A stretch of 64,000 nt of DNA from assembly GCA_049322755.1 (NCBI GenBank), contig JBMOQX010000072.1, positions 14,662 through 78,661 of the forward strand, given 5' to 3'. The position numbers and the translations under genes were made by a program. Under the pieces are notes generated by a model, which saw only the letters and a program-made list of their open reading frames with translations, searched no databases and was not told the DNA's origin. This document shows positions 32,945 to 64,000 of the stretch, one piece after another. Positions within the stretch are counted from its first letter, which is position 1; every line of letters starts with the position of its first letter. Origin of the DNA: Pseudomonadota bacterium. Its GTDB lineage: Bacteria; Pseudomonadota; Gammaproteobacteria; Burkholderiales; UBA6910.

Positions 32945-33025
32945 GGGGACGCCCTATCGTAGCAAAGGTTGCTGCTGTGACTGCGAAATGCGCCCGGCGT
33001 TGCAGGCGTGCCGTCCACGGCGGAG

Positions 33026-33066
33026 TTGATCTGCATCAACCTGCCGCCGGGTCAGCCGGCTATACT
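33026..33066 (+). promoter_or_regulatory. FNR/Dnr box TTGATctgcATCAA (33026-33039) + 21-nt spacer + -10 TATACT (33061-33066)
   Basis: Perfect match to the TTGAT-N4-ATCAA consensus. The geometry puts the site at about -41.5, as in class II promoters. Lies upstream of hoxF. Confidence 0.7.
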
Positions 33067-33111
33067 GAGAGCGGTCGGTGGCGCGACGGCAGCGTGACCG
33101 GCAAATTCACC

Positions 33112-36168: not shown

Positions 36169-36196
36169 CGGCGACGCGTTGACGCAGGAGAGGCGC

Positions 36197-40434: not shown

Positions 40435-40531
40435 TACCGATCTTGATCAAGACCTTGCCGAGGGGGCGCCGGGTACGCGGTCTGTTATAGTAGCCGCTGG
40501 GGCAGGCCTTCGCGGCGCGCTCCCGCGCACG

Positions 40532-44060: not shown

Positions 44061-44328
44061 CGTGATCTCCTCGGTCAGTTCCTGGTCATTGGCGGGAAAC
44101 CGATTGTAGTTCCATGACTTGGTAATCGCCTAGCTCCAAAGTAGTAGTTCCTTCGGGGGGCCGCCCGCGGCCCGCCCTCCGCCATTCGGCGATGGTCCAT
44201 CCGTCTTCTGCTTGCGCGTGGCGCTACCACTGCGGAATGGGTCGGTGCGCGCAGGCCGCGTAACGTTCGCTCAAGCCTTCGAGGACCCTCCACCCCCTGA
44301 AGGACAACGGCAAAAAAGGGAGAAGAGC

Positions 44329-48734: not shown

Positions 48735-48791
48735 CCGGGGCGCCGGCCCGGGCAGATTACGATTCACGATTCACCATTGACGGGGTGTGAG

Positions 48792-51700
48792 ATGAGCCAC
48801 TTTCTCGATCGACTGAAGTACTTCACCCAGGACCGGGAGACGTTCTCCGAAGGGCACGGCGTCGTGACCCGGGAGGACCGTACCTGGGAGGACGGCTATC
48901 GCAAGCGCTGGCAGCACGACAAGATCGTGCGCTCCACCCACGGCACGAACTGCACCGGCTCCTGCAGCTGGAAGGTCTACGTGAAGGGCGGCATCGTCAC
49001 CTGGGAGACGCAGCAGACCGACTACCCCCGCACCCGCCCCGACATGCCGAACCACGAGCCGCGCGGCTGCTCGCGGGGCGCCTCCTACAGCTGGTACCTC
49101 TACAGCGCCAACCGCATCAAGTACCCGATGGTGCGCGGCCGGCTGCTGAAGCTGTGGCGCGAGGCGCGCCGCACGCTCAAGCCGGTGGAGGCCTGGGCGT
49201 CCATCGTCGAGGACGCGGCCAAGACCAGGTCCTACAAGTCGCGCCGCGGTTTGGGCGGCTTCGTGCGCTCCACCTGGGATGAAGTCAACGAGCTGGTGGC
49301 CGCGGCCAACGCCTACACGGTGAAGACCCACGGCCCCGACCGGGTCATCGGCTTCTCGCCGATTCCGGCGATGTCGATGGTCTCCTACGCCGCCGGCAGC
49401 CGCTACCTGTCGCTGATCGGCGGCGTGTGCATGAGCTTCTACGACTGGTACTGCGACCTGCCGCCGTCCAGCCCGCAGACCTGGGGCGAGCAGACCGACG
49501 TGCCGGAGTCGGCGGACTGGTACAACTCCACGTTCCTCATCGCCTGGGGCTCCAACGTGCCGCAGACGCGCACGCCGGACGCCCATTTCTTCACCGAGGT
49601 GCGCTACAAGGGCGCCAAGGTGGTGGCGGTGACGCCGGACTACGCCGAGGTCTCCAAGCTCGCCGACCTGTGGATGCATCCCAAGCAGGGCACGGACGCC
49701 GCGATGGCGATGGCGATGGGCCACGTGATCCTCAAGGAGTTCCACGTCGAGCGCCAGGCGCCGTACTTCCAGGACTACGCCCGCCGCTACACCGACCTGC
49801 CGATGCTGGTCCGCCTGGTGAAGCGGGGCCAGCACCTGGTCCCGGACCGGTTCCTGCGTGCCTCGGATTTCGGCGGCAAGCTGGGCCACGCCAACAACCC
49901 GGAATGGAAGACGGTGGCCTTTGACGAGGCATCGAACCAGGTGGTGACGCCCAACGGCTCCATCGGCTTCCGCTGGACCCAGAAGCCCGGCGAGGACCAG
50001 GGCAAGTGGAACCTGGAGGAGAAGGACGGCACGTCGGGGGCCGAGACGAAGCTCGGCCTCACGCTGATCGGCCGCCGCGACGACGTGGCGGGCGTGGCCT
50101 TCCCGTACTTCGGCGGCATCGCCCACGAGCACTTCCGCCACAATGACCAGGGCACCGACATCCTGGTGCGAAATGTGCCGGTCAAGCGGCTGCAGCTGGC
50201 CGACGGCGAGGCACTGGTGGCGACCGTTTACGACCTGCTGGTGGCCAACTACGGCATCGACCGCGGTTTCGGCGGCGGCAGCGTTGCCGGTTCCTACGAC
50301 GAGGACGTGCCCTACACGCCGAAGTGGCAGGAAAAGGTGACGGGCGTTCCCGCCGAGCAGGTGATCACGGTGGCGCGGCAGTTCGCCGACAACGCCGAGA
50401 AGACCCAGGGCAAGTCGATGGTGATCATCGGCGCCGCCATGAATCACTGGTACCACTCCGACATGAACTACCGCGGCATCATCAACATGCTGATGCTGTG
50501 CGGCTGCGTCGGGCAGTCCGGCGGCGGCTGGGCCCATTACGTCGGCCAGGAGAAGCTGCGGCCCCAGACCGGCTGGACCGCGCTGGCGTTCGCGCTCGAC
50601 TGGCACCGGCCGCCGCGGCAGCAGAATTCCACCTCGTTCTTCTACGCCCACACCGACCAGTGGCGCTACGAGAAGCTGAAAGTGAGCGAGGTGCTGAGCC
50701 CGCTGGCGAATCCGGCCGAGATGAGCGGCAGCCTGATCGATTTCAACGTGCGCGCCGAGCGCATGGGCTGGCTGCCGAGCGCGCCGCAGCTGGCGGCGAA
50801 CCCGATCCAGGTGGTCAAGGACGCCCAGGCCGCGGGGATGGATCCCAAGGAATACACGGTCAAGGCGCTCAAGGACGGCAGCCTGCGCCTGTCCTGCGAG
50901 GATCCGGACAATCCGGTGAACTTCCCGCGCAACCTGTTCGTCTGGCGCTCCAATCTGCTGGGCTCCAGCGGCAAGGGCCACGAATACTTCCTCAAGCACC
51001 TGCTGGGCACCCAGCACGGCGTCCAGGGCAAGGACCTGGGCGAGGAGGGCGGCGAGCTGCCGGAGGAAGTGGAGTGGCACGAGGAAGCGCCCAAGGGCAA
51101 GCTGGACCTGCTGGTGACGCTGGACTTCCGCATGTCCACCACCTGCATGTACTCGGACGTGGTGCTGCCCACCGCCACCTGGTACGAGAAGAACGATCTC
51201 AACACCTCCGACATGCACCCGTTCATCCATCCGCTGTCCCAGGCAGTGGACCCGGTGTGGGAGTCGAGGAGCGACTGGGAGATCTACAAGGGCATCGCGA
51301 AGAAGTTTTCCGAGGTCTGCGTCGGACACCTGGGCGTGGAGAAGGAGCTGGTGCTCACGCCGCTGATGCACGACACCCCGGGCGAGCTGGCCCAGGCGCT
51401 GGACGTGCGGGACTGGAAGAAGGGCGAGTGCGACCTGATCCCCGGCAAGACCGCGCCCCAGATGACGGTGATCGAGCGCGACTATCCCAACACCTACAAG
51501 AAGTTCACCGCGCTGGGCCCGCTGATGGCCAAGGCGGGCAACGGCGGCAAGGGCATCGCCTGGAACACCGAGCACGAGGTGAAGAACCTGCTCAACCTCA
51601 ACTACCCGGTGACCGAGGAGGGCATCACCCAGGGGCTGCCGCGCATCGAATCCGACATCGACGCGGCGGAGGTGATCCTGATGCTGGCGCCGGAGACCAA

Positions 51701-52541
51701 CGGCGAGGTGGCGGTGAAGGCCTGGGAGGCGCTCTCGAAGATCACCGGCCGCAGCCACGCGCACCTGGCGTTGCCGAAGGAGGAGGAAAAGATCCGCTTC
51801 CGCGATCTGCAGGCGCAACCGCGCAAGATCATCTCCTCGCCCACCTGGTCGGGGCTGGAGTCGGAGCACGTTTCCTACAACGCCGGCTACACCAACGTCC
51901 ACGAGCTGATCCCCTGGCGCACCCTCACCGGGCGCCAGCAGTTCTACCAGGACCACAAGTGGATGCTGGCGTTCGGCGAGGGCCTGTGCGTGTACCGGCC
52001 CCCGGTGGACGTCAAGGCGGTGGCGCCGATGGCCGGGGTCAAGGGCAACGGCAACCCCGAGGTGGTGCTCAACTTCATCACGCCACACCAGAAATGGGGC
52101 ATCCACTCCACCTACACCGACAACCTGCTGATGCTGACTCTCTCGCGCGGCGGGCCGATCATCTGGCTGTCGGAGGTGGACGCGAGCAAGATCGGCGTCG
52201 AGGACAACGACTGGGTCGAGCTCTACAACGTGAACGGCGCCATCGCGGCGCGGGCGGTGGTGTCGCAGCGGGTCAACGAGGGCATGGTGCTCATGTACCA
52301 CGCCCAGGAGAAGATCGTGAACGTGCCGGGCTCCGAGATCACCGGCTCCCGCGGTGGCATCCACAACTCGGTGACCCGCATCGTCACCAAGCCGACCCAC
52401 ATGATCGGCGGCTACGCCCAGTTGAGCTACGGCTTCAACTACTACGGCACCATCGGCACCAACCGCGACGAGTTCGTCATCGTGCGCAAGATGAAGACGG
52501 TGGACTGGATGGACGAGCCGGTGCAGGCCGAGAACCTTTAA
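48792..52541 (+). CDS. narG: respiratory nitrate reductase alpha subunit
   Basis: MSHFLDRLKYF..., STHGTNCTGSCSWKVYVKGG (FS0 His/Cys motif). ~1249 aa. Confidence 0.97.
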   Translation: MSHFLDRLKYFTQDRETFSEGHGVVTREDRTWEDGYRKRWQHDKIVRSTHGTNCTGSCSWKVYVKGGIVTWETQQTDYPRTRPDMPNHEPRGCSRGASYSWYLYSANRIKYPMVRGRLLKLWREARRTLKPVEAWASIVEDAAKTRSYKSRRGLGGFVRSTWDEVNELVAAANAYTVKTHGPDRVIGFSPIPAMSMVSYAAGSRYLSLIGGVCMSFYDWYCDLPPSSPQTWGEQTDVPESADWYNSTFLIAWGSNVPQTRTPDAHFFTEVRYKGAKVVAVTPDYAEVSKLADLWMHPKQGTDAAMAMAMGHVILKEFHVERQAPYFQDYARRYTDLPMLVRLVKRGQHLVPDRFLRASDFGGKLGHANNPEWKTVAFDEASNQVVTPNGSIGFRWTQKPGEDQGKWNLEEKDGTSGAETKLGLTLIGRRDDVAGVAFPYFGGIAHEHFRHNDQGTDILVRNVPVKRLQLADGEALVATVYDLLVANYGIDRGFGGGSVAGSYDEDVPYTPKWQEKVTGVPAEQVITVARQFADNAEKTQGKSMVIIGAAMNHWYHSDMNYRGIINMLMLCGCVGQSGGGWAHYVGQEKLRPQTGWTALAFALDWHRPPRQQNSTSFFYAHTDQWRYEKLKVSEVLSPLANPAEMSGSLIDFNVRAERMGWLPSAPQLAANPIQVVKDAQAAGMDPKEYTVKALKDGSLRLSCEDPDNPVNFPRNLFVWRSNLLGSSGKGHEYFLKHLLGTQHGVQGKDLGEEGGELPEEVEWHEEAPKGKLDLLVTLDFRMSTTCMYSDVVLPTATWYEKNDLNTSDMHPFIHPLSQAVDPVWESRSDWEIYKGIAKKFSEVCVGHLGVEKELVLTPLMHDTPGELAQALDVRDWKKGECDLIPGKTAPQMTVIERDYPNTYKKFTALGPLMAKAGNGGKGIAWNTEHEVKNLLNLNYPVTEEGITQGLPRIESDIDAAEVILMLAPETNGEVAVKAWEALSKITGRSHAHLALPKEEEKIRFRDLQAQPRKIISSPTWSGLESEHVSYNAGYTNVHELIPWRTLTGRQQFYQDHKWMLAFGEGLCVYRPPVDVKAVAPMAGVKGNGNPEVVLNFITPHQKWGIHSTYTDNLLMLTLSRGGPIIWLSEVDASKIGVEDNDWVELYNVNGAIAARAVVSQRVNEGMVLMYHAQEKIVNVPGSEITGSRGGIHNSVTRIVTKPTHMIGGYAQLSYGFNYYGTIGTNRDEFVIVRKMKTVDWMDEPVQAENL

Positions 52542-52623
52542 CCACGAAGGACGCAATGGACGCAAAGGAAGGACACCCGGAGCTGATGAGCATCCTTGGC
52601 GTCCTTAGCGTCCTTGGCGGTGA
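52541..52623. repeat. imperfect ~80-nt inverted repeat with three tandem 9-mers (tccttggcg tccttagcg tccttggcg) in the narG-narH spacer
   Basis: The 5' arm accacgaaggacgcaatggacgcaaaggaaggac pairs by hand with the 3' arm atccttggcgtccttagcgtccttggcggt. Confidence 0.6.
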
Positions 52624-52643
52624 AAACTCAAGGGGTGCATGAA

Positions 52644-54164
52644 ATGAAAGTACGCGCACAGATCGGCATGGTCCTCAATCTCGACAAGTGCATCGGCTGC
52701 CATACCTGCTCGGTGACCTGCAAGAACGTCTGGACCAACCGCGAGGGCATGGAGTACGCCTGGTTCAACAACGTCGAGACCAAGCCCGGCATCGGCTATC
52801 CCAAGGAGTGGGAGAACCAGGACAAGTGGGACGGCGGCTGGGTGCGCAAGGGCAGCGGCCGCATCGAGCCCAAGCAGGGCAGCAAGTGGCAGATCCTGAT
52901 GAAGATCTTCGCCAACCCGAAGCTGCCCGAGATCGACGACTACTACGAGCCGTTCACGTTCGATTACCAGCACCTGCACAACGCGCCGGATATGAAGACC
53001 GCGCCGGTGGCGCGGCCGCGCAGCCTGATCACCGGCAAACGCATGGAGAAGATCGAGTGGGGCCCCAACTGGGAGGAGATCCTGGGCGGGGAGTTCTCGA
53101 AGCGTTCCAGGGACGCCAACTTCGAGCAGGTGCAGAAGGACATCTACGGCCAGTTCGAGAACACCTTCATGATGTACCTGCCGCGGCTGTGCGAGCACTG
53201 CCTCAACCCCACCTGCGTCGCCTCCTGCCCGTCGGGTTCGATCTACAAGCGCGAGGAGGACGGCATCGTCCTCATCGACCAGGACAAGTGCCGCGGCTGG
53301 CGCATGTGCGTCTCCGGCTGCCCGTACAAGAAGATCTACTACAACTGGTCCACCGGCAAGGCCGAGAAGTGCATCTTCTGCTATCCGCGCATCGAGGCCG
53401 GCCAGCCCACCGTGTGCTCGGAGACCTGCGTCGGGCGCATCCGCTACCTGGGGGTGCTGCTGTACGACGCCGACCGCATCGAGGAGGCCGCCAGCGTCGA
53501 GGACCCGAAATCGTTGTACAAGGCGCAGCTGTCGCTGTTCCTCGACCCGCACGCGCCGGAGGTGCAGGAACAGGCGCGCCGCGACGGCGTGCCGGAGGCC
53601 TGGATCGAGGCCGCACAGGAATCCCCGGTCTACAAGATGGCGATGGACTGGAAAGTGGCGCTGCCGCTGCACCCCGAGTACCGCACGCTGCCGATGGTGT
53701 GGTACGTGCCCCCGCTGTCACCGATCCAGGCCGCCGCCAACGCCGGACAGATCGGCGTCAACGGGGCAATACCCGACGTCGGCGAGCTGCGCATCCCGCT
53801 CAAGTACCTGGCCAACCTGCTCACCGCCGGCGACGAGGCGCCGGTGAAGCGGGCGCTGGAGCGGATGCTGGCGATGCGCGCCTACATGCGCGACAAGCAT
53901 GTCGAGCAGCGCCAGAACCTGGAAGTGCTGCGGCAGGCGGATCTCACGCAGGCCCAGGTGGAGGCGATGTACCGCTACATGGCGATCGCCAACTATGAGG
54001 ACCGCTTCGTGATTCCCACCACGCACCGGGAGTACGCGGAGAACGCCTACGACCTGCGCGGCGGCTGCGGCTTCTCGTTCGGCAACGGCTGCTCCGACGG
54101 ACAGAGCGAGCCCAGCCTGTTCGGGGGCAAGAAGAAGACCATTCCCATCAAATCCATGGCCTAG
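52644..54164 (+). CDS. narH: respiratory nitrate reductase beta subunit
   Basis: MKVRAQIGMVLNLDKCIGCHTCSVTCKNVWT plus further Fe-S Cys clusters. Confidence 0.97.
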   Translation: MKVRAQIGMVLNLDKCIGCHTCSVTCKNVWTNREGMEYAWFNNVETKPGIGYPKEWENQDKWDGGWVRKGSGRIEPKQGSKWQILMKIFANPKLPEIDDYYEPFTFDYQHLHNAPDMKTAPVARPRSLITGKRMEKIEWGPNWEEILGGEFSKRSRDANFEQVQKDIYGQFENTFMMYLPRLCEHCLNPTCVASCPSGSIYKREEDGIVLIDQDKCRGWRMCVSGCPYKKIYYNWSTGKAEKCIFCYPRIEAGQPTVCSETCVGRIRYLGVLLYDADRIEEAASVEDPKSLYKAQLSLFLDPHAPEVQEQARRDGVPEAWIEAAQESPVYKMAMDWKVALPLHPEYRTLPMVWYVPPLSPIQAAANAGQIGVNGAIPDVGELRIPLKYLANLLTAGDEAPVKRALERMLAMRAYMRDKHVEQRQNLEVLRQADLTQAQVEAMYRYMAIANYEDRFVIPTTHREYAENAYDLRGGCGFSFGNGCSDGQSEPSLFGGKKKTIPIKSMA

Positions 54165-54174
54165 GAGAGCGATC

Positions 54175-54858
54175 ATGAACCTGCTGCTCAAGGCGCTGGG
54201 CGCCCTCATCAGCTACCCCGATGCCGATCTGCGCGCGGCGCTTCCCGAAATCGCCGAGGCGGTCGGCGGGGCACGCGCGCTGCCACGCCCGCTCAAGGAG
54301 GACCTCGCCGCGCTGATCGGCGAGATGGCCGCCGCCGATGCGTACGACCTGGAGGAGAACTACGTCGGCCTGTTCGACCGCGGCCGCGCCACGTCGCTGC
54401 ACCTGTTCGAGCACGTGCACGGCGAGTCGCGCGACCGGGGCCAGGCGATGGTGGACCTGCGCTCGGTCTACGCCCGGCACGGCCTGACGCTCGCCGCCAA
54501 CGAGCTGCCCGACTACCTGCCGGCGATGCTGGAGTACCTGGCGCTGGTGCCGGAACCGGAGGCGCGCGACATGCTGGGCGAGTGCGCCCACATCCTGCGC
54601 CGCATCGGCGAGGCCCTGGCGGCCCGCGGCAGCCGCCACAGCGCGGTGTTCGCCGCCCTGCTGGCGGTGGCGGGCGAGAAGGGGCTCGATCCGGCGGCGG
54701 GAACGCAGGCGCTGGCGGCGGAGAAGCCGCTGGACGAGGAATGGGCCGAGGAGCCGGTGATTTTCGGTCCCCAGGCCGCCTGGGGCAGCGGCGCCGCCGG
54801 CTGCGGCGCCCAACCGCAGGTGGCGCCGGTCAATTTCGTTCCCCGGGTTTCCCAGTGA
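54175..54858 (+). CDS. narJ: nitrate reductase molybdenum cofactor assembly chaperone
   Basis: YVGLFDRGRATSLHLFEHVHGESRDRGQAMVDL pattern. Confidence 0.9.
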   Translation: MNLLLKALGALISYPDADLRAALPEIAEAVGGARALPRPLKEDLAALIGEMAAADAYDLEENYVGLFDRGRATSLHLFEHVHGESRDRGQAMVDLRSVYARHGLTLAANELPDYLPAMLEYLALVPEPEARDMLGECAHILRRIGEALAARGSRHSAVFAALLAVAGEKGLDPAAGTQALAAEKPLDEEWAEEPVIFGPQAAWGSGAAGCGAQPQVAPVNFVPRVSQ

Positions 54859-54871
54859 TCAGGAGCACGCC

Positions 54872-55567
54872 ATGAGTTCCGGCCAATACCTCAACCAGTT
54901 TCTCTTCGGGATCTATCCCTACGTTGCGCTCGCCGTGTTCTTTCTCGGCAGCCTGATCCGCTTCGACCGCGAGCAGTACACCTGGCGCAGCGAGTCGTCG
55001 CAGATGCTCAAGACCGGCCAGCTGCGCTGGGGGTCCAACCTGTTCCACATCGGCATCCTGGGCATCTTCTTCGGCCACCTGGTGGGGCTGCTCACGCCGC
55101 TGCCGGTCTGGCACGCGCTGGGCATCGGCGCGCCGGCCAAACAGATGCTGGCCATCGTCGCCGGCGGCGTGTTCGGTCTGCTCTGCCTCGCCGGGCTCGC
55201 GCTGCTGATCAACCGCCGGATCACCGAGCCGCGCATCCGCAGTACCACCAAGACCATGGACTGGGTGATCCTGTTCCTGCTGCTGGGGCAGCTGGTGCTG
55301 GGGCTGGTCTCGATCAACGAGTCGTGGCAGCACCGCGACGGCGGCGAGATGCTCCGCTTCATGGAGTGGGCGCAGCGCATCGTCACTTTCCGCGGCGGCG
55401 CGGCCGACCTGGTGGCGGAGGCGGCGCTGGTCTTCAAGCTGCACCTGGTGCTGGGCATGACCATCTTCCTGGTGTTCCCGTTCTCGCGGCTGGTGCACAT
55501 CTGGAGCGGGTTCGCCGCGGTCACCTATCTGTTCCGGCCGCACCAGGTGGTGCGCACCCGGGGCTGA
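54872..55567 (+). CDS. narI: respiratory nitrate reductase gamma subunit (cytochrome b)
   Basis: 5-TM protein with a LFHIGILGIFFGHLVG haem-ligand region. 231 aa. Confidence 0.93.
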   Translation: MSSGQYLNQFLFGIYPYVALAVFFLGSLIRFDREQYTWRSESSQMLKTGQLRWGSNLFHIGILGIFFGHLVGLLTPLPVWHALGIGAPAKQMLAIVAGGVFGLLCLAGLALLINRRITEPRIRSTTKTMDWVILFLLLGQLVLGLVSINESWQHRDGGEMLRFMEWAQRIVTFRGGAADLVAEAALVFKLHLVLGMTIFLVFPFSRLVHIWSGFAAVTYLFRPHQVVRTRG

Positions 55568-55574: not shown

Positions 55575-55976
55575 GTGCACAAGCGCAACCGCCAGTTCGT
55601 CGCCGTCGGCCTGGTCTACGGCCTGATCGGAGGGGCGCTGGCGCTCGCGCACCTGCTGGCGCCGGGCGCGATTCCCGGCAACGTGCCCCGGGCCCACGGT
55701 CACCTGATGCTGCTGGGCCTGGTGATGATGACCATCTACGGCGTCGGCCTGCACGTGATCCCGCGCTTCGGCGGCTATCCGCTGCGCTCGGAGCGCATCG
55801 CCAACGCCCAGTTCTGGCTGGCCAACGCCGGCCTGCCGCTGCTGGCAGCGGGTTTCCTGGCGCTGGCGGACTGGCTGGTGGCGCTGGGCGGTGCGCTGAA
55901 CGTCGCCGCGATGGTGCTGTTCGCGTGGAACATGGTGTTCTCGGTGCGGCTGCGCGGGCCGCTGGACGCGCGATGA
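55575..55976 (+). CDS. 4-TM membrane protein, mini-NnrS-like module
   Basis: The GTG at 55575 is 8 nt after the narI stop. The motif AHGHLMLLGLVMMTIYGVGLHVIPRF parallels NnrS WAHGYLMIFGTLPFFIFGFLMTAMPNW at 58338-59627. Confidence 0.6.
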   Translation: MHKRNRQFVAVGLVYGLIGGALALAHLLAPGAIPGNVPRAHGHLMLLGLVMMTIYGVGLHVIPRFGGYPLRSERIANAQFWLANAGLPLLAAGFLALADWLVALGGALNVAAMVLFAWNMVFSVRLRGPLDAR

Positions 55977-56419
55977 GCGAGTACCGCGGCTGCGAGCTGC
56001 CCCCCGATCTCTGGTACGACCTGGACTACTGCTGGGTGCGGCCGGCGGGCGACGGCGTCTACCGCATCGGCATCACCGACCCGTCCCAGACCATGGCCGG
56101 GCGGGTGCAGTATGCCACCATCAAGGACGTCGGCACCCACCGCCGCTGGAAAAAGCCGCTGGCGCGGCTGGAGTCCGGGAAATGGGCGGGCGGGATTCCG
56201 GCGCCGTTCGACGGCACCATCACGGCGCGCAACCCGGCGGTGATGGACAACCCCGGTCTCATCAACGTTGCGCCCTACACCGACGCCTGGCTGGTGGAGA
56301 TGAAGCCCGACGACCCGGCCAGCGCGCTGGAGCATCTCAGCACGGGCGACGAGGCGATCGCAGCGCTGAAGCGCTGGATCGACCGCTACGACGTGCAGTG
56401 CATGCGCTGCATGGACTGA
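55973..56419 (+). CDS. glycine-cleavage H-protein-fold (lipoyl-carrier-like) protein
   Basis: ATGA overlap with the upstream gene. RIGITDPSQTMAGRVQY...LARLESGKWAGGIPAPFDGTI...NPGLINVAPYTDAWLVEM aligns with the GcvH pattern, including the carrier Lys position. C-terminal CMRC. Confidence 0.7.
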   Translation: MSEYRGCELPPDLWYDLDYCWVRPAGDGVYRIGITDPSQTMAGRVQYATIKDVGTHRRWKKPLARLESGKWAGGIPAPFDGTITARNPAVMDNPGLINVAPYTDAWLVEMKPDDPASALEHLSTGDEAIAALKRWIDRYDVQCMRCMD

Positions 56420-56422
56420 TCG

Positions 56423-57214
56423 GTGAAGGATGAACGGGTCATGGTGAAGGGTGAAAAGAGCAGGGCGAGCGGTCCAGGGCAGGGCGCTCGCGCCGCTCCC
56501 GCCCCCAGGCACCACGTTCAACTCCTGGTGTCCGAGTGGTGCCACACCTGCCCCGCCGCCGAGCAGATCTGGCGCCAGGTGGCGCAGGAGCGGGATATCC
56601 GCTTCGCCGTGGTGGACATGGCGCAGTCCGAGGGACGCGAACTGGTGGCGCGGTTGCGGTTGAAGAGCGTGCCGTCGGTGATCGTCGACGGCGCCCTGGC
56701 GGCGGTGGGCGTGCAGTCGCTGACGGAGGCGCGTGCCCTGGTGGCGGATGCGCCGCCGCGCACGAAGGGAGCGGCCTACCACGCGGGCCTCATGCTCTCG
56801 CGCGACAATCGGGCCTTCATCGTCTCGGCCATGGGCTGGCTGGTGGTGGCGGGCGCGCTGATGCTGGCCCACGGGGGCCTGCCGGCGGCGGGCGCGACGC
56901 GGGCGGCGGCGATCCACGCGTTTCTTGCCGGCTTCGTGCTGATGATGATCTTCGGGCTCGCGGCCCACATGGTGCCGCGCTTCACCGGGCTGCCGATCCG
57001 CAGCGGCGGCTGGGCCTGGGGGCAGCTCGCGCTGGCCCATGCCGGCGTGCTCGGCTTCGCCGGCGGGCAGCTGCTCGATGCGCGCGCGCTGGCGCTGGGC
57101 GGCGCTCTGGCGCTGTGGCTCGCGCTGGCGCTGTTCGCCGCGCGGCTGTGGCCGCTGCTGCTGCCGCGCAACGGTGCCGCGGCGGAAGCGCCCAATGGCG
57201 CGGACCCGGAATGA
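56423..57214 (+). CDS. thioredoxin-fold (CxxC) domain fused to a mini-NnrS-like 4-TM module
   Basis: The Trx-like part is LLVSEWCHTCPAAEQIW...LKSVPSVIVDG. The TM region is IHAFLAGFVLMMIFGLAAHMVPRF, homologous to the 55575 gene. Start is the GTG at 56423 or the ATG at 56441. Confidence 0.65.
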   Translation: MKDERVMVKGEKSRASGPGQGARAAPAPRHHVQLLVSEWCHTCPAAEQIWRQVAQERDIRFAVVDMAQSEGRELVARLRLKSVPSVIVDGALAAVGVQSLTEARALVADAPPRTKGAAYHAGLMLSRDNRAFIVSAMGWLVVAGALMLAHGGLPAAGATRAAAIHAFLAGFVLMMIFGLAAHMVPRFTGLPIRSGGWAWGQLALAHAGVLGFAGGQLLDARALALGGALALWLALALFAARLWPLLLPRNGAAAEAPNGADPE

Positions 57215-57681
57215 ACGTCTCCGTCAACGGCGTCACGATCGACGCCGCCGCCATCGAACGCGAAAGCCGTCGGTATGAGGGGGCGCCGGACCCGCTCGCG
57301 GTGGCGGCGGTCTGGCTCGCGGTGCAGGAGCTGCTGTTGCAGCGGGCGCGGGCGCTGGGCATCGCGGGCGAGGGCGACGAGGACACCGTGGAGCGGCTGC
57401 TGGAGCGGGAAGTGCCGGTGCCGGTGGCCACCGACGCCGAATGTCGCCGCTACTACGACGGCCACCCGGAGCGCTTCCGCCACGGCTTCCACGTGATCGA
57501 GGTGCTGCGCCGGGTGGAGGGCGAACTGGCGCCGTTCGAGGAGGTGCGCGATGAAATCGCCGCCCGCCTGCACGACGGCGCGCTGCGCCGCGCGCTGGCG
57601 CAGTACGTGCAGCTGCTGGCGGGCAGCGCCCGGGTGGAGGGGATCGACCTGCTGCGGGCGGATTCGCCGCTGGTGCAGTAA
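57211..57681 (+). CDS. SurA/PpiC-family chaperone-like protein lacking an evident rotamase core (156 aa)
   Basis: ATGA overlap at 57211-57214. The ends resemble nar-linked PpiC/NifM-like proteins (VNGVTIDAAAIERE...; ...FEEVRDEIAARL...). The parvulin domain appears to be missing. Confidence 0.55.
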   Translation: MNVSVNGVTIDAAAIERESRRYEGAPDPLAVAAVWLAVQELLLQRARALGIAGEGDEDTVERLLEREVPVPVATDAECRRYYDGHPERFRHGFHVIEVLRRVEGELAPFEEVRDEIAARLHDGALRRALAQYVQLLAGSARVEGIDLLRADSPLVQ

Positions 57682-57688
57682 CCATGCC

Positions 57689-58357
57689 ATGACGGAGCTC
57701 GACGACGAGATCCTGGCGCGGCTCAAGCGCTTCCACTTCGGCAGCTTCCGCCGCTTCCGGCGCCAGTTCCGCGAGCTGGTGGATCAGGGCCAGCACCCGA
57801 CGACGCTGTTCATCAGCTGCTCGGACTCGCGCATCGTGCCCAACCTGCTGCTGGACTGCGGCCCCGGCGAGCTGTTCGTGGTGCGCAACGCCGGCAACTT
57901 CGTTCCGCCGTGGGACGCCTCCGCGGGCTACCATGGCACCACGGCGTCCATCGAGTTCGCGGTGCTGCAGCTCCAGGTGCGGCACATCGTGCTCTGCGGC
58001 CACAGCCACTGCGGCGCGGTCAAGGCGCTCTATCACGAGCTGCCGGCGCAGGCGCACCATTTGCGGTACTGGCTTACGCTGGGGCGCGACGCCGTGCTGC
58101 CGGTGACTGGCTCCGATGAAGCGTATTTCCGCACCGAGCAGCGCTCGGTGGCGCTGCAGCTCACGCGGCTGCTGGACTACCCGATGGTGCGGGAGCGGGT
58201 CGAGCGCGGCGAGCTGTCCGTGCACGGCTGGCATTACCTGATCGAGGAGGGCAAGGTTCTGATGCTGGATCTGGAGTCGGGGACGTTCGAGCCGTTCGAG
58301 ACGGTAGTGGCGCGTGCCGATCAGGAGCACCTGCGCGATGTCAACCCGCTCATGTGA
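57689..58357 (+). CDS. beta-class carbonic anhydrase
   Basis: SCSDSRIVP, FVVRNAGN and GHSHCGAV zinc-ligand motifs. Confidence 0.88.
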   Translation: MTELDDEILARLKRFHFGSFRRFRRQFRELVDQGQHPTTLFISCSDSRIVPNLLLDCGPGELFVVRNAGNFVPPWDASAGYHGTTASIEFAVLQLQVRHIVLCGHSHCGAVKALYHELPAQAHHLRYWLTLGRDAVLPVTGSDEAYFRTEQRSVALQLTRLLDYPMVRERVERGELSVHGWHYLIEEGKVLMLDLESGTFEPFETVVARADQEHLRDVNPLM

Positions 58358-59627
58358 ACCGGCCGCCCGCGGCGGCGCGCCGCGCCGGCCGCAGCGACGC
58401 AGCGCGGCGGCGGTATGGCGGCAGCTGACCGCGGCGCCCCACCGCATCCTGTTTTTCTGCGGCATGCTGCAGCTGCTGGCGGCGATGGCCTGGTGGCTCG
58501 CCAACCTGCTCGGACGCTACGGCGGGCTCTACACGCCGCCGGTGCTGGCGGCGCCGCCCGGATGGGCCCACGGCTACCTGATGATCTTCGGCACCCTGCC
58601 GTTCTTCATCTTCGGCTTTCTCATGACCGCCATGCCCAACTGGCTGGGTGAAGGCCGCGTGCCGCGCCCGGCCTATCTCGCGTGCGCCGGGCTGATGGCG
58701 GCGGGCGTCGCGGCGTTCTACGCGGCGGTGGCAATTTCGCCCTGGCTGGCGGCGGCCGCCGTGCTGGTGCAGCTCGCCGGCTGGATCGTCGGGTGGGTCG
58801 CGCTGGCGCGGCTGAGCGCGCGCGCGGCGCGGCCCGAGCGGCGCTACCCGGCGATCATGCTGAGCGTGACCGCGGTGGGCGCGGCGCTGCTGGCGGCGTT
58901 CGCCGTCGGCGTTGCCCGCCTGGACCCGGCGTGGGTCGCCGCGGCGCTGCGCGGCGGGCTCTGGTGGTTCCTGCTGCCGGTGTTCTTCAACGTCAGCCAT
59001 CGCATGATTCCGTTTTTCAGCAGCCGCGCGCTTCCCGGCTATCCCGTGATCCGGCCTCCGTGGACAGTGCCGATGTTCACCGCCGGATCGCTGCTGCGGG
59101 GCGTGCTGGAGCTCGCCGGCTCGGCGCCGGCGCTGCTCCTCGTCGCTGACGGCCTGATGCTGCTGCCGGTGGCGTACCTGACGGCGCGCTGGCGCGGCTG
59201 GCGCGCCGGCGGTGTGCGCCTGCTGGCGGTGCTGCACCTGGGCTTTGCGATGCTCGCCGTCGCGCTGGTGCTGTTCCTGGTGCAGGACGTGGCAGCGCTG
59301 CGCGGTCATGCCGTGCTGGGCCATGCGCCGGCCCACGCGCTCACCATCGGTTACTTTTCCGCCATGCTGGTGGCCATGGTGTCGCGGGTGACGCTGGGGC
59401 ACTCGGGGCGGCCGCTCGAGGCGGACGCGGTGATCTGGGGCTGCTTCCTCGCGGTGCTGGCGACCGCCGCGCTGCGCATCGCCGCCGAGCTGCCGGGGGT
59501 GCCGGCGGAAGCGCGCGCGATGCTGATGTGGCTGGCGGCCCTCGCGTGGCTGCTGGCGCTGCTGCCGTGGGTGGTGGCGTACCTGCCGGTTTACCTCGCG
59601 CCGCGGGTCGACGGCCGGCCGGGTTGA
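58338..59627 (+). CDS. nnrS: NnrS-family haem/copper membrane protein
   Basis: PHRILFFCGMLQLLAAMAWW. Multiple TM segments with conserved His (WAHGYLMIFG; HAPAHALTIGYFSAMLVAMVSRVTLGH). An alternative start lies at 58314. Confidence 0.85.
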   Translation: MSTRSCEPAARGGAPRRPQRRSAAAVWRQLTAAPHRILFFCGMLQLLAAMAWWLANLLGRYGGLYTPPVLAAPPGWAHGYLMIFGTLPFFIFGFLMTAMPNWLGEGRVPRPAYLACAGLMAAGVAAFYAAVAISPWLAAAAVLVQLAGWIVGWVALARLSARAARPERRYPAIMLSVTAVGAALLAAFAVGVARLDPAWVAAALRGGLWWFLLPVFFNVSHRMIPFFSSRALPGYPVIRPPWTVPMFTAGSLLRGVLELAGSAPALLLVADGLMLLPVAYLTARWRGWRAGGVRLLAVLHLGFAMLAVALVLFLVQDVAALRGHAVLGHAPAHALTIGYFSAMLVAMVSRVTLGHSGRPLEADAVIWGCFLAVLATAALRIAAELPGVPAEARAMLMWLAALAWLLALLPWVVAYLPVYLAPRVDGRPG

Positions 59628-59673: not shown

Positions 59674-60246
59674 ATGGGATCGGTGAGCCTGGGAAGTCTC
59701 GGAACCAAGACGGCGGCGGCCGGGTTCGACGAGCCGCTGGCGCTGCTGCAGGGCTGCCACGAGCGCATCGCGCAGCGCTGCGACCTGCTGCTGCGGCTGG
59801 CGGATCACGTCGCCACCCACGGGCCCGACGCCGAGGCGGCGCTCGCCGCCACGGGGCTGCTGCGCTATTTCCGCGACGCCGGCGTCAAGCACCACGAGGA
59901 TGAGGAGCAGGACCTGTTCCCGATGCTGCTGGCGGCGGTGCCGGCCGGGGAGCGGGGTGCGGCGGCGGAACTGGTGGACGCGCTGGTGGCCGAGCACCGC
60001 GTGATGGCGGCGGCGTGGGCCGAGCTCGAAGCGCAGCTGGCGCTGCTGGCGCAGAACCGGGCGGCGGCGCTGCCGGCGGAGCAGGCGGCGCGGTTCGCCG
60101 CGCTGTACGCGGAGCATATTGTCCGGGAGGAGGATGCGCTGCTGCCGCTGGCGCGCCGCGTGCTGGACGCGAAAACCCTCGACCGTCTGGGCGCGGCCAT
60201 GGCCGCGCGCCGCGGGGTCAGGCGGGAGCCGGCTCGCGCCCGTTGA
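59674..60246 (+). CDS. hemerythrin (HHE cation-binding) domain protein
   Basis: LLQGCHERI..., HHEDEEQDLFPML, EHRVM and EHIVREEDALLP His/Glu ligand patterns. Confidence 0.8.
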   Translation: MGSVSLGSLGTKTAAAGFDEPLALLQGCHERIAQRCDLLLRLADHVATHGPDAEAALAATGLLRYFRDAGVKHHEDEEQDLFPMLLAAVPAGERGAAAELVDALVAEHRVMAAAWAELEAQLALLAQNRAAALPAEQAARFAALYAEHIVREEDALLPLARRVLDAKTLDRLGAAMAARRGVRREPARAR

Positions 60247-61381
60247 GCAGGTAGTCCAGCAGGTCCTGCACCGGACGGATGGCGGTGCCGAACGGCAGTC
60301 GCTCGGCACCGCGGAAGAACAGTCCCTTCTTCACGTCGCCCTTCATGGCGAACGCGAGCCGCGTGGCGATGCAGAACTGGCCGAACTGCGCCAGGCCGTC
60401 GCGCAGACCGCACAGCGTCAGGCAGTTGGCGCCGGGAACGCAGCGGCGGGAATCGGCCTTGGCGTGGGACTGCAGCGCCTTTTCCCGCTTCAGGTAGTTC
60501 TTCAGCCAGGGTGTCAGCACGCCGCGGGCCGGCAGCCCGGCCACGCTGGTGAAGGTGACGATGTCCTCGGGCCGGGCTTCCAGCAGCACGCGCTTGAAGT
60601 TCTCGTGGGCGTCGCCCTCGGCGGTGACCGCAAAAGGGGTGCCCAGCTGTACGGCGCTGGCGCCCAGGTCGAGCAGGCGGCGCAGGTCGGCGTGGGTGTG
60701 GATGCCGCCCGCGGGAATCAGCGGCACGCGCTCGCGTTCGATGCCCAGGTCGCGCAGCAGCGCCAGCGTGGCTTCCAGCACCGGCGCGAAATCGAAGCGG
60801 GCGGCGCCGATGTCCTCGAACTTGGGGGCGCCCAGATGGCCGCCCGCGTAGCGCGGGTGCTCGACGACGATGGCGTCGGGCAGGACGTTCCTGCGCAGCC
60901 ACTTCTTGAGGACGATGGCGATGCCGCGGGCGTCCGACAGGATCGGGATCAGCGCCACCTGCGGGAAGTCGCGGGTCATCTCCGGCAGGTCCAGCGGCAG
61001 GCCGGCGCCCATGACGATGGCGTGGGCGCCGCTCTCGCATGCCTGGCGCACATAGAGCGGGTGGGCCGCGACCGCCTTCATCACGTTCACCGCCACCGCG
61101 CCGCGTTCGCCGGCGAGCGCCAGCGCGCCGCGCACCTCGCGGTCCAGCGCCACCAGGTTCACGCGGTCGATCAGCGCCTGGTCGCGCGCGCCCGCGCACT
61201 CGGCCATGAGGTCTTCGTGGTGGTGGCGCAGCTCGACGCTGGCCACGGTGCCGAGGGCGCCGAGCGCCGCCACCGACCCCGCCAGCCGGCGGGCAGACAC
61301 CCCGACGCCCATGCCGCCCTGGACGACGGGCAGCAGCGAGCGGCCCCGCAGGGTCCAATGGGGCAGGGAGGTGGTCAACAT
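60218..61381 (-). CDS. nitronate monooxygenase / NAD(P)H-dependent flavin oxidoreductase family (387 aa)
   Basis: LLPVVQGGMGVGVS and IPAGGIHTHADL motifs. The ATG at 61381 is preceded directly by TATAAT. Confidence 0.85.
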   Translation of the reverse strand: MLTTSLPHWTLRGRSLLPVVQGGMGVGVSARRLAGSVAALGALGTVASVELRHHHEDLMAECAGARDQALIDRVNLVALDREVRGALALAGERGAVAVNVMKAVAAHPLYVRQACESGAHAIVMGAGLPLDLPEMTRDFPQVALIPILSDARGIAIVLKKWLRRNVLPDAIVVEHPRYAGGHLGAPKFEDIGAARFDFAPVLEATLALLRDLGIERERVPLIPAGGIHTHADLRRLLDLGASAVQLGTPFAVTAEGDAHENFKRVLLEARPEDIVTFTSVAGLPARGVLTPWLKNYLKREKALQSHAKADSRRCVPGANCLTLCGLRDGLAQFGQFCIATRLAFAMKGDVKKGLFFRGAERLPFGTAIRPVQDLLDYLLNGREPAPA

Positions 61382-61387: not shown

Positions 61388-61428
61388 ATTATAACCTCGA
61401 TACCCGCCACAGCCTTGATCTGCATCAA
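61388..61428 (-). promoter_or_regulatory. FNR/Dnr box TTGATgcagATCAA (61415-61428) + 21-nt spacer + -10 TATAAT (61388-61393)
   Basis: The box is the same palindromic 14-mer as at 33026 when read on the plus strand. The -10 ends 6 nt before the ATG. Confidence 0.7.
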
Positions 61429-62189: not shown

Positions 62190-62906
62190 TCAGGCGCGGC
62201 GGATCTCGAACGACCCGAACAGCCCCGCGAGGCGATCTCCCGGAACGGCGTCGACGGCCCGCGCCGGCGGCAGCCGGCCGTCGGGACCGCGGCCGCGGGC
62301 CTCCTGAACGACGAAACGGGCGACACCCATCGCCACCAGCGTGCGTGCCAGCTCCAGCAGGCCCGCCGGCGGCAGCAGGGCAGGATGCACGGTGGTGCGC
62401 ACTTCGTGGCCGACGCCGCTTGCCAGCACCAGGCGCAGGCTGGCGAGCGCCGCTGCGCCGCTGCCCTCGACGCCGGTGATGGCGGCGTAGGCGTGGAACG
62501 GCGCCTTGACGTCGAAGCCCACCCAATCCACCTGCGGCAGCACGGCCTCGAGCCGCCGCGGATGGACGCCCGCCGTGTGCAGCCCGACGTGAAAGCCCAG
62601 TGCCCGCGCCTGCGCCGCCGCGGCGGCGAGACCCGGCTGCCGGGTCGGCTCGCCGCCGCTGAACACCACCGCGTCCAGGAGCCCGACCCGCCGCCGCAGG
62701 AAACGCACGACGTCGCGCCACTCGACGCCGCCGCCGGCGCGCGGCGGCAGCAGGTGCGGGTTGTGGCAGTAGCCGCAGCGCCACGCGCAGCCCTGGCAGA
62801 ACACCACCGCCGCCAGCTGTCCCGGGTAGTCGGTGAGCGACAGCGGCGTCAGACCGCCGATGCGCAGCGCAGCGCGCTGTCCGGACCGGGAGCGGACCGC
62901 CTCCAC
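62190..62906 (-). CDS. radical-SAM activating enzyme (anaerobic RNR activase NrdG-like family)
   Basis: LSLTDYPGQLAAVVFCQGCAWRCGYCHNPHL (CxxxCxxC), and FSGGEP. The GTG at 62906 is proposed as the start; the ORF stays open to 62984. Confidence 0.72.
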   Translation of the reverse strand: MEAVRSRSGQRAALRIGGLTPLSLTDYPGQLAAVVFCQGCAWRCGYCHNPHLLPPRAGGGVEWRDVVRFLRRRVGLLDAVVFSGGEPTRQPGLAAAAAQARALGFHVGLHTAGVHPRRLEAVLPQVDWVGFDVKAPFHAYAAITGVEGSGAAALASLRLVLASGVGHEVRTTVHPALLPPAGLLELARTLVAMGVARFVVQEARGRGPDGRLPPARAVDAVPGDRLAGLFGSFEIRRA

Positions 62907-62907
62907 G

Positions 62908-63363
62908 TCAGTGCGGCTCCTGCGCGCCGCGCAGCGCCAGCGCCAGCAGCCGCGCCACCGCGGGCGGCGGCCAGTCCACGGCATCCAGCGTGTTCTTGAT
63001 CGTCAGCCCCAGCTCGGTGTCCCCCTCCAGCGTCAGGCGCCGGCTGAAGAACAGCGTGTCCGGGTCCTCGGCGCGTGCCAGCAGCCGCAGGAAATCCCGG
63101 CTGCCGGCGGCGATGGTGAGTTCCGGCGCCGCGGCAGCGGTGCAGGGCCGCGCGCCGCTGCCGGTGAGGGTGAAGTTGACGGTGAGGCCGATGTCGGTGA
63201 CGACGATGCGCAGCCGCCGTCCGCGCAGCGCCGCCAGCGGCTCGGTGGGAATCACGCGCCCCAGCGCCGCGCTCAGGCCCAGCGCGAACACGGCCGACGG
63301 CGGAAACGCCGGCAGACTCGCCACCAGCGCCCGCAGCGGCGCCGGGAACTGCGGTGCAATCAC
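62908..63363 (-). CDS. SCP2 sterol-carrier-like domain protein (UbiT-like)
   Basis: The GTG at 63363 overlaps the upstream stop (GTGA). ...RLRIVVTDIGLTVNFTL...SRDFLRLLARAEDPDTLFFSRRLTLEGDTELGLTIKNTLD is the SCP2 pattern. Confidence 0.7.
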   Translation of the reverse strand: MIAPQFPAPLRALVASLPAFPPSAVFALGLSAALGRVIPTEPLAALRGRRLRIVVTDIGLTVNFTLTGSGARPCTAAAAPELTIAAGSRDFLRLLARAEDPDTLFFSRRLTLEGDTELGLTIKNTLDAVDWPPPAVARLLALALRGAQEPH

Positions 63364-64000
63364 GGCTCGTCCTCCCGCTCCGCGGCGGCGGCGTCCCGCC
63401 CCGGCGGCACGAACCGCATGAGCTTCTCCAGCACCGGCAGCTGCAGCCGCGCCTGGGCCTGGAAGCGGCCGGCGTAGGCGTCGGCCTCCTGGTGCAGCTC
63501 GTAACAGTTGGATCCGCTCACGTCCATCAGCACCGCGGGCAGCTCCGCCCGGGCGAACGCAGCGTGGCGCTTGAGAAAAAAGTGGCTGCAGCACATGCCG
63601 ACGTAGGCGCGGCCCTCGCGCCGAAGCCGCTCCAGCGTCTCCACCAGGTGCTCGTAGCGGGTCACGGTGATCACCTGCATGCCGCGCTCCCGCGCCAGCC
63701 GGTACGCCTCGCTCACCTCGCAGCGGCCGCACTCGGGGCAGCCGTCGCGGTGGCGCCACTTGCACCACGCCGGCTTGGCGCAGTAGGGCACCAGCATGGC
63801 GGTGGCCTGGGCCAGCGTGGCCTGGGCGCCGGCGCCGCCGGGGCCGTGCAGCATCACCGCGTCGGCCTCGGCCTGGGTCAGTCCCGCGCTTTCCTGGAGC
63901 CGCCGCTTGTCGGCCACCTGGGCCAGTGCCTCGGCCAAATCCTCGGGTCCGATCGCCACCGCATCGCCGCCGGCGGCGGCGAAGGCCGCCTCGAGGCGCG
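63360..64000 (-). CDS. Cys-rich DUF116-like protein, 5' end probably outside window
   Basis: YCAKPAWCKWRHRDGCPECGRCEV...YVGMCCSHFF pattern, recalled as DUF116. The reading frame is still open at the window end. Confidence 0.55.
   Translation of the reverse strand, partial: RLEAAFAAAGGDAVAIGPEDLAEALAQVADKRRLQESAGLTQAEADAVMLHGPGGAGAQATLAQATAMLVPYCAKPAWCKWRHRDGCPECGRCEVSEAYRLARERGMQVITVTRYEHLVETLERLRREGRAYVGMCCSHFFLKRHAAFARAELPAVLMDVSGSNCYELHQEADAYAGRFQAQARLQLPVLEKLMRFVPPGRDAAAAEREDEP

Follow-up and report, generated by a model that had tools for sequence, protein, structure and literature searches.

A compact three-gene unit, P1-P2-P3, lies directly behind the nitrate reductase operon narGHJI in a 64,000-nucleotide (nt) stretch of DNA from a Burkholderiales bacterium of the UBA6910 lineage (contig JBMOQX010000072.1, positions 14,662 to 78,661; the whole stretch is hereafter called the window). 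P1 encodes a protein with four transmembrane (4-TM) helices, P2 a carrier protein with the fold of the glycine cleavage H-protein (GcvH), and P3 a thioredoxin-fold domain fused to a paralogue of P1. The initial annotation treated the six genes behind narI as one module wired to the nitrate reductase (Nar). The six-gene tail is instead a composite, in which only P1-P2-P3 form a conserved unit. This triad is autonomous: it is kept in genomes without nar and normally has its own FNR/DNR-type site. We propose, with a probability of roughly 45%, that the triad may act as a membrane-anchored heme-dithiol redox relay that is induced by anaerobiosis or nitric oxide (NO) and has been joined to nar in this lineage. 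The genes of the run and the convergent gene that follows it are:

55575 to 55976, forward strand: P1, 133-residue 4-TM protein with a weak COX1 match, first gene of the triad
55973 to 56419, forward strand: P2, 148-residue carrier with a GcvH fold (GCV_H, 2.3e-31), second gene of the triad
56423 to 57214, forward strand: P3, thioredoxin-fold domain fused to a 4-TM paralogue of P1, third gene of the triad; the start may be the ATG at 56441
57211 to 57681, forward strand: P4, 156-residue remnant of a nar-linked PpiC/NifM-like peptidyl-prolyl isomerase
57689 to 58357, forward strand: P5, beta-class carbonic anhydrase (Pro_CA, 5.3e-45)
58338 to 59627, forward strand: P6, full-length NnrS with 12 TM helices in three 4-TM repeats (PF05940, 5.3e-67)
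59674 to 60246, forward strand: P7, hemerythrin-domain protein, last of the run (Hemerythrin, 1.4e-18)
60221 to 61381 (to 61428 with its upstream box), reverse strand: NMO/FabK-like flavoprotein gene, convergent (NMO, PF03060, for a homologue)

An alignment of P1 was used to scan species-representative genomes, and 79 loci were obtained. Their hosts are Burkholderiales metagenome-assembled genomes (MAGs), Pelomicrobium sp. G1, approximately 20 Thioalkalivibrio genomes, gammaproteobacterial MAGs and two Gemmatimonadota. Sulfurirhabdus and Ectothiorhodospiraceae are further hosts of the triad, and cultivable strains are available in Pelomicrobium, Thioalkalivibrio and Sulfurirhabdus. P1-P2-P3 was complete and collinear in 68 of the 74 loci that had enough downstream sequence, and the overlapping or few-nucleotide junctions within the triad were likewise conserved among loci. 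This fixed order across Proteobacteria orders, with its tight junctions kept, argues against operon compaction of unrelated anaerobically expressed genes whose products act independently; the paralogy of P1 and P3 and the natural fusions described below, which speak for a physical partnership, weigh in the same direction. Compaction would account for the differing genes after P3 and for the apparent decay of P4, and overlapping stop and start codons are often seen in high-GC genomes (the GC content of the window is approximately 70%), but we regard an absence of joint function as very unlikely.

The other genes of the tail do not travel with the triad. Of 51 loci compared with all window proteins by tblastn, 17 have a P7-like hemerythrin no farther than 6.5 kb from the triad, 8 have NnrS, 4 a beta-carbonic anhydrase and 3 P4. 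The gene that follows P3 is variable: half of the loci have none, and the others have a rhodanese, beta-carbonic anhydrase, SirB-like, hemerythrin or PpiC gene. One conserved module of all six genes, as initially supposed, is ruled out by these neighbor counts and by the variable position after P3; P4 (a decayed PpiC), P5, P6 and P7 are lineage-variable companions of the triad. Unbiased clustering of the flanking open reading frames (ORFs) returned DUF2249::hemerythrin proteins, Crp/Fnr regulators (17 loci) and an NMO-like flavoprotein (9 loci) as recurrent neighbors. Hemerythrin, NnrS, DUF2249::hemerythrin and the Crp/Fnr regulators point to an NO or low-oxygen theme, and the NO/anaerobic setting suggested by the initial annotation thus gains support from both neighbors and regulation.

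The relation to nar is looser than the window alone would suggest. narI is immediately 5´ of the triad in four loci besides the window (L003, L006, L010 and L084), and only L006, whose P1 is 89% identical, shares the window order narJI-P1-P2-P3-PpiC-carbonic anhydrase. A neighborhood comparison relative to narI, which the initial annotation had recommended, upheld the conservation of the triad but not a regular adjacency to narI. A dedicated accessory or maturation module, which would depend on NarGHI and supply or repair a cofactor of Nar or deal with Nar-specific by-products, is favored by the presence of narI within 5 kb upstream of the triad in 10 of 63 loci, which is far above chance for a single-copy operon. 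At least three layouts occur (narI-triad, narI-ppiC-x-x-triad and narI-ppiC...crp-triad), the narI-P1 junction spans just 7–9 nt in the window and in L006, and a PpiC/NifM-like maturation-type gene and beta-carbonic anhydrase go with the nar-linked versions. However, approximately 84% of the loci have no nar within 5 kb, and even next to narI an FNR/DNR-type box of its own precedes the triad. The constant partners in the Thioalkalivibrio loci are hemerythrins, encoded divergently from P1, and not nar; in Pelomicrobium, the hemerythrin gene is directly downstream of the triad. Pelomicrobium methylotrophicum (L088) has the arrangement secretin-triad-hemerythrin at the same syntenic site, with the box kept and no nar within 8 kb, and in L003 nar is a remnant disrupted by an insertion sequence while the triad is retained. 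Because the triad is kept in such loci and normally has its own box, it is autonomous; its dependence on nar was rejected on the same grounds, and a set wired specifically to the nitrate reductase, as first claimed, did not hold up. We consider a Nar accessory role improbable.

The regulatory sites upstream of P1 separate the triad from nar in most genomes. In 33 of 76 loci, the 250 nt 5´ of P1 contain a strict TTGA-N6-TCAA palindrome, usually between −49 and −85; dinucleotide-shuffled versions of these regions gave 0.115 such loci on average and never more than 1. Approximately 20 others have a box with a single mismatch, conserved in its position at −47, and the box-free loci are mostly those in which the triad is embedded in a nar cluster. 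In L003, L010 and L084, the box sits between narI and P1, as it does in Pelomicrobium sp. G1. By these predicted sites, triad regulation is of the FNR/DNR type and independent of nar in most genomes, and the triad is a predicted member of this regulon. In the window, no FNR/DNR-type box was found upstream of P1 or narK; since the nar operon also stands behind narX/narL-like genes, the 7-nt junction between narI and P1 appears to be a derived operon fusion.

Only two FNR/DNR-type sites without a mismatch occur in the 64 kb, and 16 sites were found with up to two mismatches, compared with 4.6 expected. One perfect box, TTGATCTGCATCAA, is located at 61415–61428, approximately 34 nt upstream of the start of the NMO-like gene. 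The other, the identical palindrome TTGATCTGCATCAA at 33026–33039, is located in the start region of a gene for a HoxF-like NAD-linked hydrogenase diaphorase (32977–34908), which is followed by the gene for a NiFe hydrogenase large subunit (35897–37684).

Several loci depart from the common arrangement. In L072 (1229–2217), P2 and the thioredoxin domain are gone, and P1 persists with a stand-alone 141-residue protein of the type of the C-terminal half of P3; an apparent phosphoribosyltransferase gene, judged from its sequence, takes the place of P2 and the thioredoxin domain, and a convergent NMO-like gene is next. In the nar-free Burkholderiales locus L001 (11566–13692), the triad stands between a VTT/DedA-type membrane gene and a gene for a 708-residue protein with no Pfam or NCBIfam match. 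In loci with the narI-ppiC-...-triad layout (L004, 9193–10014; L017, 8040–8444 and 9586–10014), two small conserved proteins are encoded between ppiC and P1, one of approximately 134 residues and the other Cys-rich, of approximately 107 residues, with CIGCG...CIGIC; both have no Pfam match. A divergent NnrS paralogue (27–32% identity) is often present in these loci. In the Gemmatimonadota locus L080 (9552–10438), a distant P1-like 4-TM gene (38% identity) occurs without P2 and P3, directly 3´ of genes for a lipoprotein-type cupredoxin and a multi-pass membrane protein, which is a copper-linked context.

P1 and the C-terminal half of P3 (P3C) are paralogues (36% identity, E=3e-12), and both resemble the repeat unit of NnrS. 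In profile-profile comparisons with hhalign, P3C matched the last third of NnrS over the whole 4-TM unit (92% probability, E=5e-7), which bears out the earlier description as a "mini-NnrS" at the profile level; the matches of P1 to the first and last thirds were weaker (68% and 39%). Neither P1 nor P3C matched the Pfam NnrS model at E≤0.01, and each has 4 TM helices, not 12. P1 also matches COX1 weakly (7e-6; 25.5 bits against a Pfam cutoff of 34.8) and is not a COX1 member, with only 4 TM helices and no equivalent of repeat 2 and its CuB ligands. By these profiles, P1 and P3C are relatives of the NnrS repeat unit rather than NnrS members and are assigned as single repeats of the heme-copper-oxidase/NnrS superfamily.

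The conserved residues of the two proteins are histidines in the membrane part and a pair of cysteines in the thioredoxin domain. His41, His43 and His60 of P1 are invariant in the family alignment and in 78 locus sequences and belong to the motif YGVGLHVxPRFGGY; in P3, Cys40-x-x-Cys43, His165 and His182 are invariant in 72 sequences. Among solved structures, the P1 profile matched the cbb3 oxidase subunit CcoN (9g6b_A, E=5e-5) at all three 4-helix repeats. This weak alignment (E=5e-5) places H41-G-H43...H60-VIPR of P1 onto H346-V-H348...H365-LIPK of CcoN. The H-x-H of CcoN helix X we take to be the ligands of heme b3 and heme b, as in the Pseudomonas stutzeri cbb3 oxidase. The N-terminal part of P3 has a thioredoxin fold with a CxxC motif (Thioredoxin_3, 7e-9, 36 bits against a cutoff of 24.8). 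Its AlphaFold2 model (mean predicted confidence, pLDDT, 88.5) shows this fold followed by four long helices. Foldseek returned only thioredoxins from the Protein Data Bank (PDB; probability 1.0), and no solved membrane protein with the P3 architecture was among these matches. The thioredoxin domain is predicted to be cytoplasmic from the missing signal peptide, the charge distribution and homology.

A search of 1.84 billion representative sequences with the P1 profile identified 801 clusters of relatives in which the unit occurs once, twice or three times. Those with three copies either score above the COX1 cutoff of Pfam or belong to NnrS, with DUF1858 and ScdA_N as fusion partners. Natural two-repeat fusions (P0321 and P0332) combine an "xxH" repeat, which is P3C-like, with an "HxH" repeat, which is P1-like, in either order; together with the paralogy of P1 and P3C, they argue for a physical partnership. 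Other relatives of the membrane unit are fused to TIGR03980, ScdA_N or FeS_assembly_P, with TIGR03980, the hybrid cluster protein-associated redox disulfide domain, on single-repeat ones. By these fusions, the pairing of this membrane unit with a cytoplasmic domain for thiol/disulfide chemistry is a recurrent feature of the superfamily. A separate group of stand-alone two- and three-repeat relatives (P0308, P0310 and P0313) has H-x-H in every repeat; canonical heme-copper oxidases have this motif in helix X only. This group may be an uncharacterised family of symmetric multi-heme membrane proteins.

The similarity to single COX1/NnrS repeats also raises the possibility of an assembly factor, in which these units would act as scaffolds or chaperones that deliver heme or copper to NnrS or to oxidases, with the thioredoxin domain maintaining metal-binding cysteines in the reduced state. 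Several loci have NnrS in the vicinity; cox, COX15, SCO1 and UbiA genes adjoin the triad in L004 and L005; and a cupredoxin is encoded beside the P1-like gene in Gemmatimonadota. Such adjacency to NnrS or cox is nevertheless confined to a minority of loci. The thioredoxin domain and P2 are predicted to be cytoplasmic, on the side opposite to periplasmic copper insertion, and lipoyl-type carriers are not known to take part in the delivery of heme or copper. The strictly conserved ligand-type histidines suit an end-user that binds a cofactor better than a factor that delivers it, and we regard this role as quite improbable.

P2 has the H-protein fold (GCV_H, 108.7 bits against a cutoff of 22.2) but is not a GcvH equivalog, with scores below the NCBIfam GcvH cutoffs (98.4 compared with 117, and 80 compared with 115.85). 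All 70 sequences compared, and a second alignment, keep Lys70 (in LESGKW), Cys7 and Cys143-x-x-Cys146 unchanged. An exact-sequence look-up of P2 returned no match. The AlphaFold2 model (pLDDT 92.3) is a canonical H-protein with Lys70 at the tip of a hairpin and superimposes on the E. coli H-protein (3ab9/3a7l) with TM-scores of 0.79–0.92 and root mean square deviations of 1.4–1.6 Å; Lys70 aligns with the lipoyl-lysine (ESVK) of E. coli GcvH. Judged by these features, P2 is lipoyl-competent and is probably lipoylated on Lys70. gcvT and gcvP are absent from the recurrent neighbor clusters of the approximately 80 loci. A dedicated lipoate ligase was rejected as a regular companion of P2, with an LplA::DUF116 ligase gene close to the triad in only approximately five loci.

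In the window, the ORF at 63360–63959 (reverse strand) has 76% identity with the DUF116 half, at the C-terminus, of a 534-residue LplA-B_cat::DUF116 fusion. In Pelomicrobium, this fusion (L088, 9947–11551, reverse strand) is near the triad, beside UbiT/UbiU/UbiV-like and B12-radical-SAM genes; the window holds the DUF116 part only, adjoining a radical-SAM gene (62190–62984, reverse strand). The LplA::DUF116 region might be a lipoate ligase system that is dedicated to P2.

The carrier protein raises the possibility of a sulfur function. LbpA of the sHdr sulfur oxidation pathway has a conserved lipoyl-lysine and cysteines near the N- and C-termini that are absent in GcvH (PMC6067878), and P2 has the same pattern of GcvH fold, conserved Lys and extra Cys near both termini. 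The triad could then be a sulfur-carrier or electron-entry module, in which the LbpA-like P2 would bear sulfane sulfur or electrons on its lipoate and Cys, the thioredoxin domain and the membrane unit would pass electrons to quinone at low oxygen, and NO would not be the target. Many hosts oxidise sulfur (Thioalkalivibrio, Sulfurirhabdus and Ectothiorhodospiraceae), a rhodanese gene directly follows P3 in at least six Thioalkalivibrio loci, the neighboring hemerythrin carries DUF2249, and LplA::DUF116 is near the triad in Pelomicrobium. However, no sHdr, Dsr or Sox genes were found in the recurrent neighbor clusters of the triad loci, and many hosts are Burkholderiales MAGs with nar contexts. 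Furthermore, RIC/ScdA and hybrid cluster protein (Hcp)-associated domains occur in fusions with relatives of the membrane unit, which points to NO or Fe-S repair. We regard a sulfur-carrier role as rather unlikely.

For the heme-dithiol relay that we favor, these features would fit together as follows. P1 and P3C would pair in the membrane to form a split two-repeat heme-copper-oxidase/NnrS fold. Histidines of the second helix would hold one or more hemes, with P1 His43 and P3 His165 forming a bis-His heme site and P1 His41 a further site. At the cytoplasmic face, the CxxC thioredoxin domain of P3 would exchange electrons with P2, a GcvH-type carrier with a putative lipoyl group on Lys70 and the additional set of Cys7 and CxxC, and the relay would thereby link the cytoplasmic dithiol pool to a membrane heme. 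At this heme, NO or adducts derived from it might be bound or reduced, or electrons might be exchanged with quinone. The outcome would be less nitrosative damage while nitrate respiration yields nitrite and NO. In this lineage, the module may have lost its own promoter and been fused 7 nt behind narI, by which Nar and the module would be made together. A published account reports NnrS, citing earlier work, as a heme/copper protein that protects from iron-NO complexes or signals to Fe-S repair proteins, and notes that bacteria with Nar only produce NO and N2O (PMC5710167). The steps that we infer from the features above are the binding of heme, the pairing of P1 with P3 as a heterodimer, the lipoylation of P2, the path of the electrons and its direction, and the role of NO as target.

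Several observations weigh against this relay. The putative heme binding leans on a weak alignment (E=5e-5) and on the heme ligands of cbb3 oxidases, and His60 of P1 and His182 of P3 align to a CcoN histidine that is no known heme ligand. FNR and DNR boxes are indistinguishable, and low oxygen, not NO, may be the signal; the regulator encoded next to the triad is a Crp/Fnr protein of a generic kind that reaches none of the NCBIfam cutoffs, and its typing as DNR rather than FNR was dropped on that ground. A lipoate ligase gene accompanies the triad in few loci, and the rhodanese neighbors and sulfur-oxidising hosts suit a sulfur-carrier role equally well. The locus counts are not phylogenetically independent, approximately 20 of the loci being from Thioalkalivibrio.

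A bolder version of this proposal is that the triad represents a hitherto unrecognised class of minimal heme-copper-oxidase-like enzymes: a split two-repeat hemoprotein without the CuB/FeB repeat, which would act as a dithiol-fed NO reductase or denitrosylase, or as an NO-gated switch. Electrons would come from the lipoyl-protein/thioredoxin relay rather than from quinol or cytochrome c, and the enzyme would protect Fe-S enzymes during nitrate respiration. We regard this version as unlikely. If it is true, the triad would preserve, in living cells, the ancestral 4-helix unit from which respiratory oxidases and NnrS were built.

The genes behind the triad are a mixed group. Of the Rotamase_2 profile, P4 aligns with no more than the C-terminal tail, at 19.3 bits (cutoff 27). 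It aligns in two blocks (residues 1–92 and 90–156) to the N- and C-termini of PpiC/NifM-like proteins of 252–263 residues from 14 loci, and a full-length homologue matches Rotamase at 4.6e-17 and the NifM-like model at 5e-24. The in-frame loss of the rotamase core of approximately 90 residues is found in P4 of this genome only; the core is present in all 14 homologues, and the closest relative, L006, keeps a 254-residue PpiC form. The deletion could be gene decay in progress or an artefact of MAG assembly. The initial annotation was thus right that P4 lacks the isomerase domain, but a purpose-built chaperone without that domain is ruled out by a deletion unique to this genome, and P4 is better described as a decayed copy of the ordinary nar-linked PpiC. 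A PpiC-type gene also follows narI in Pseudomonas.

P5 is an ordinary beta-carbonic anhydrase (Pro_CA, 153.9 bits), with the zinc-site motifs CSDSR and HSHC in its translation. Homologues with 67–88% identity are encoded 3´ of the triad in L006, L017, L023, L024, L025, L028 and L032, mainly nar-linked loci. P6 is likewise an ordinary member of its family, NnrS (Pfam model, 227 bits; cutoff 28). P7 shows weak FeS_repair_RIC and DnrN matches in addition to its hemerythrin domain and is the commonest neighbor of the triad elsewhere. The domains initially assigned to the six genes were all confirmed.

The same-strand run itself was re-read from the sequence, and every gap and overlap of the six-gene run described at the outset was found as claimed; a seventh gene, P7, lies 46 nt past P6 and is followed by the convergent gene. 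The stop codon of narI (55565–55567) is separated by 7 nt from the GTG of P1 at 55575, and this start is supported by the P1 N-terminus, MHKRN, which agrees with the family consensus in the alignment. P1 and P2 share an ATGA overlap at 55973–55976, as do P3 and P4 at 57211–57214. The stop of P2 (56417–56419) is 3 nt from the GTG of P3 at 56423; the NCBI start for an identical P3 protein is the ATG at 56441, which gives a gap of 21 nt instead. A 7-nt gap separates the TAA of P4 (57679–57681) from the ATG of P5 at 57689, and the in-frame ATG of nnrS at 58338 overlaps the end of P5 (stop at 58355–58357) by 20 nt. The ORFs of the tail have a coding-type GC content at third codon positions of 0.90–0.95. 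A scan of the tail interior found no promoters and two terminator-like matches compared with 2.2 expected, which is nothing beyond chance.

The nar operon to which the tail is joined spans 48777–55567, and its NarG and NarH are 77–84% identical to those of other triad loci (tblastn). Its genes and those 5´ of it, with the results of Pfam/NCBIfam scans for narJ and narI, are:

40397 to 42472: narX-like gene, 5´ of narGHJI
42947 to 43672: narL-like gene, 5´ of narGHJI
44212 to 45591: gene for a NarK-type transporter of the major facilitator superfamily
47313 to 48734: second gene for a NarK-type transporter of the same superfamily
48777 to 52541, forward strand: narG
52596 to 54164, forward strand: narH
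54175 to 54858, forward strand: narJ (TIGR00684, 3e-36)
54872 to 55567, forward strand: narI (TIGR00351, 4.5e-80)

A short orphan gene with a secretin domain is located at 38275–39150 of the window, with syntenic copies in L003 (2886–3536) and L088 (5962–6861). It stands 5´ of the triad/nar region both here and in Pelomicrobium-type genomes, with a nar cluster in the interval to the triad in some cases and not in others.

The triad genes currently carry misleading labels: P1 is named "cbb3 oxidase subunit I" or is unnamed, P2 is named "glycine cleavage protein H" and P3 "thioredoxin/glutaredoxin". The initial annotation knew of no description of the set, and the literature that could be searched yielded none of the triad. 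Little is understood of NnrS-type proteins or of GcvH-like lipoate carriers that act outside glycine cleavage, and the module would link the two physically and genetically. A tightly conserved, mis-annotated unit in approximately 80 species representatives, including cultivable strains, makes its function directly testable, and its single- and double-repeat relatives of oxidase subunit I bear on the origin of the 12-helix oxidase fold.

Compared with known systems, the triad combines elements that are found apart elsewhere. The nar-linked PpiC proteins after narI in 14 loci are homologous to P4 at both ends and differ from it in the rotamase core that P4 of this genome alone has lost. By functional analogy, VKOR-thioredoxin fusions, DsbB/DsbD and HdrDE likewise pair a small helical membrane module with a thioredoxin-fold CxxC domain, a combination that could connect a redox cofactor in the membrane with a dithiol/disulfide couple. 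However, the TM part of P1 and P3 has no Cys and only His, their thioredoxin domain is predicted to be cytoplasmic rather than periplasmic, and these systems show no sequence or fold match to the triad. LbpA resembles P2 in its GcvH-like fold, in the Lys and terminal Cys, in its place outside glycine cleavage and in an LplA-like ligase that is sometimes near. P2 differs in its C-terminal CxxC, compared with the single Cys of LbpA, in the absence of adjacent shdr genes, and in its partners, a membrane-anchored thioredoxin and a 4-TM protein.

The membrane part has its counterparts in NnrS and the oxidases. NnrS (PF05940) has the 4-TM repeat unit in common with P1 and P3C, as well as FNR/DNR/NnrR-type control and denitrification contexts. 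In contrast, P1 and P3C are single repeats on two genes and score below the Pfam NnrS threshold, and NnrS has neither the tethered thioredoxin domain nor the GcvH-type carrier of the triad. For CcoN/COX1 (PF00115), the P1 profile matches all three pseudo-symmetric repeats, and the three-repeat relatives pass the COX1 cutoff; the triad differs in having two repeats in total, no CuB-binding repeat (helices V–VIII) and no CcoO/P partners. The NnrS/COX1-like fusions (P0315, P0334, P0356, P0363 and P0449) share with the triad the combination of a membrane repeat and a cytoplasmic thiol/disulfide or Fe-S-repair domain. In place of the TIGR03980 or ScdA_N domains of these fusions, which are themselves uncharacterised, the triad uses a thioredoxin fold and a separate lipoyl-type carrier.

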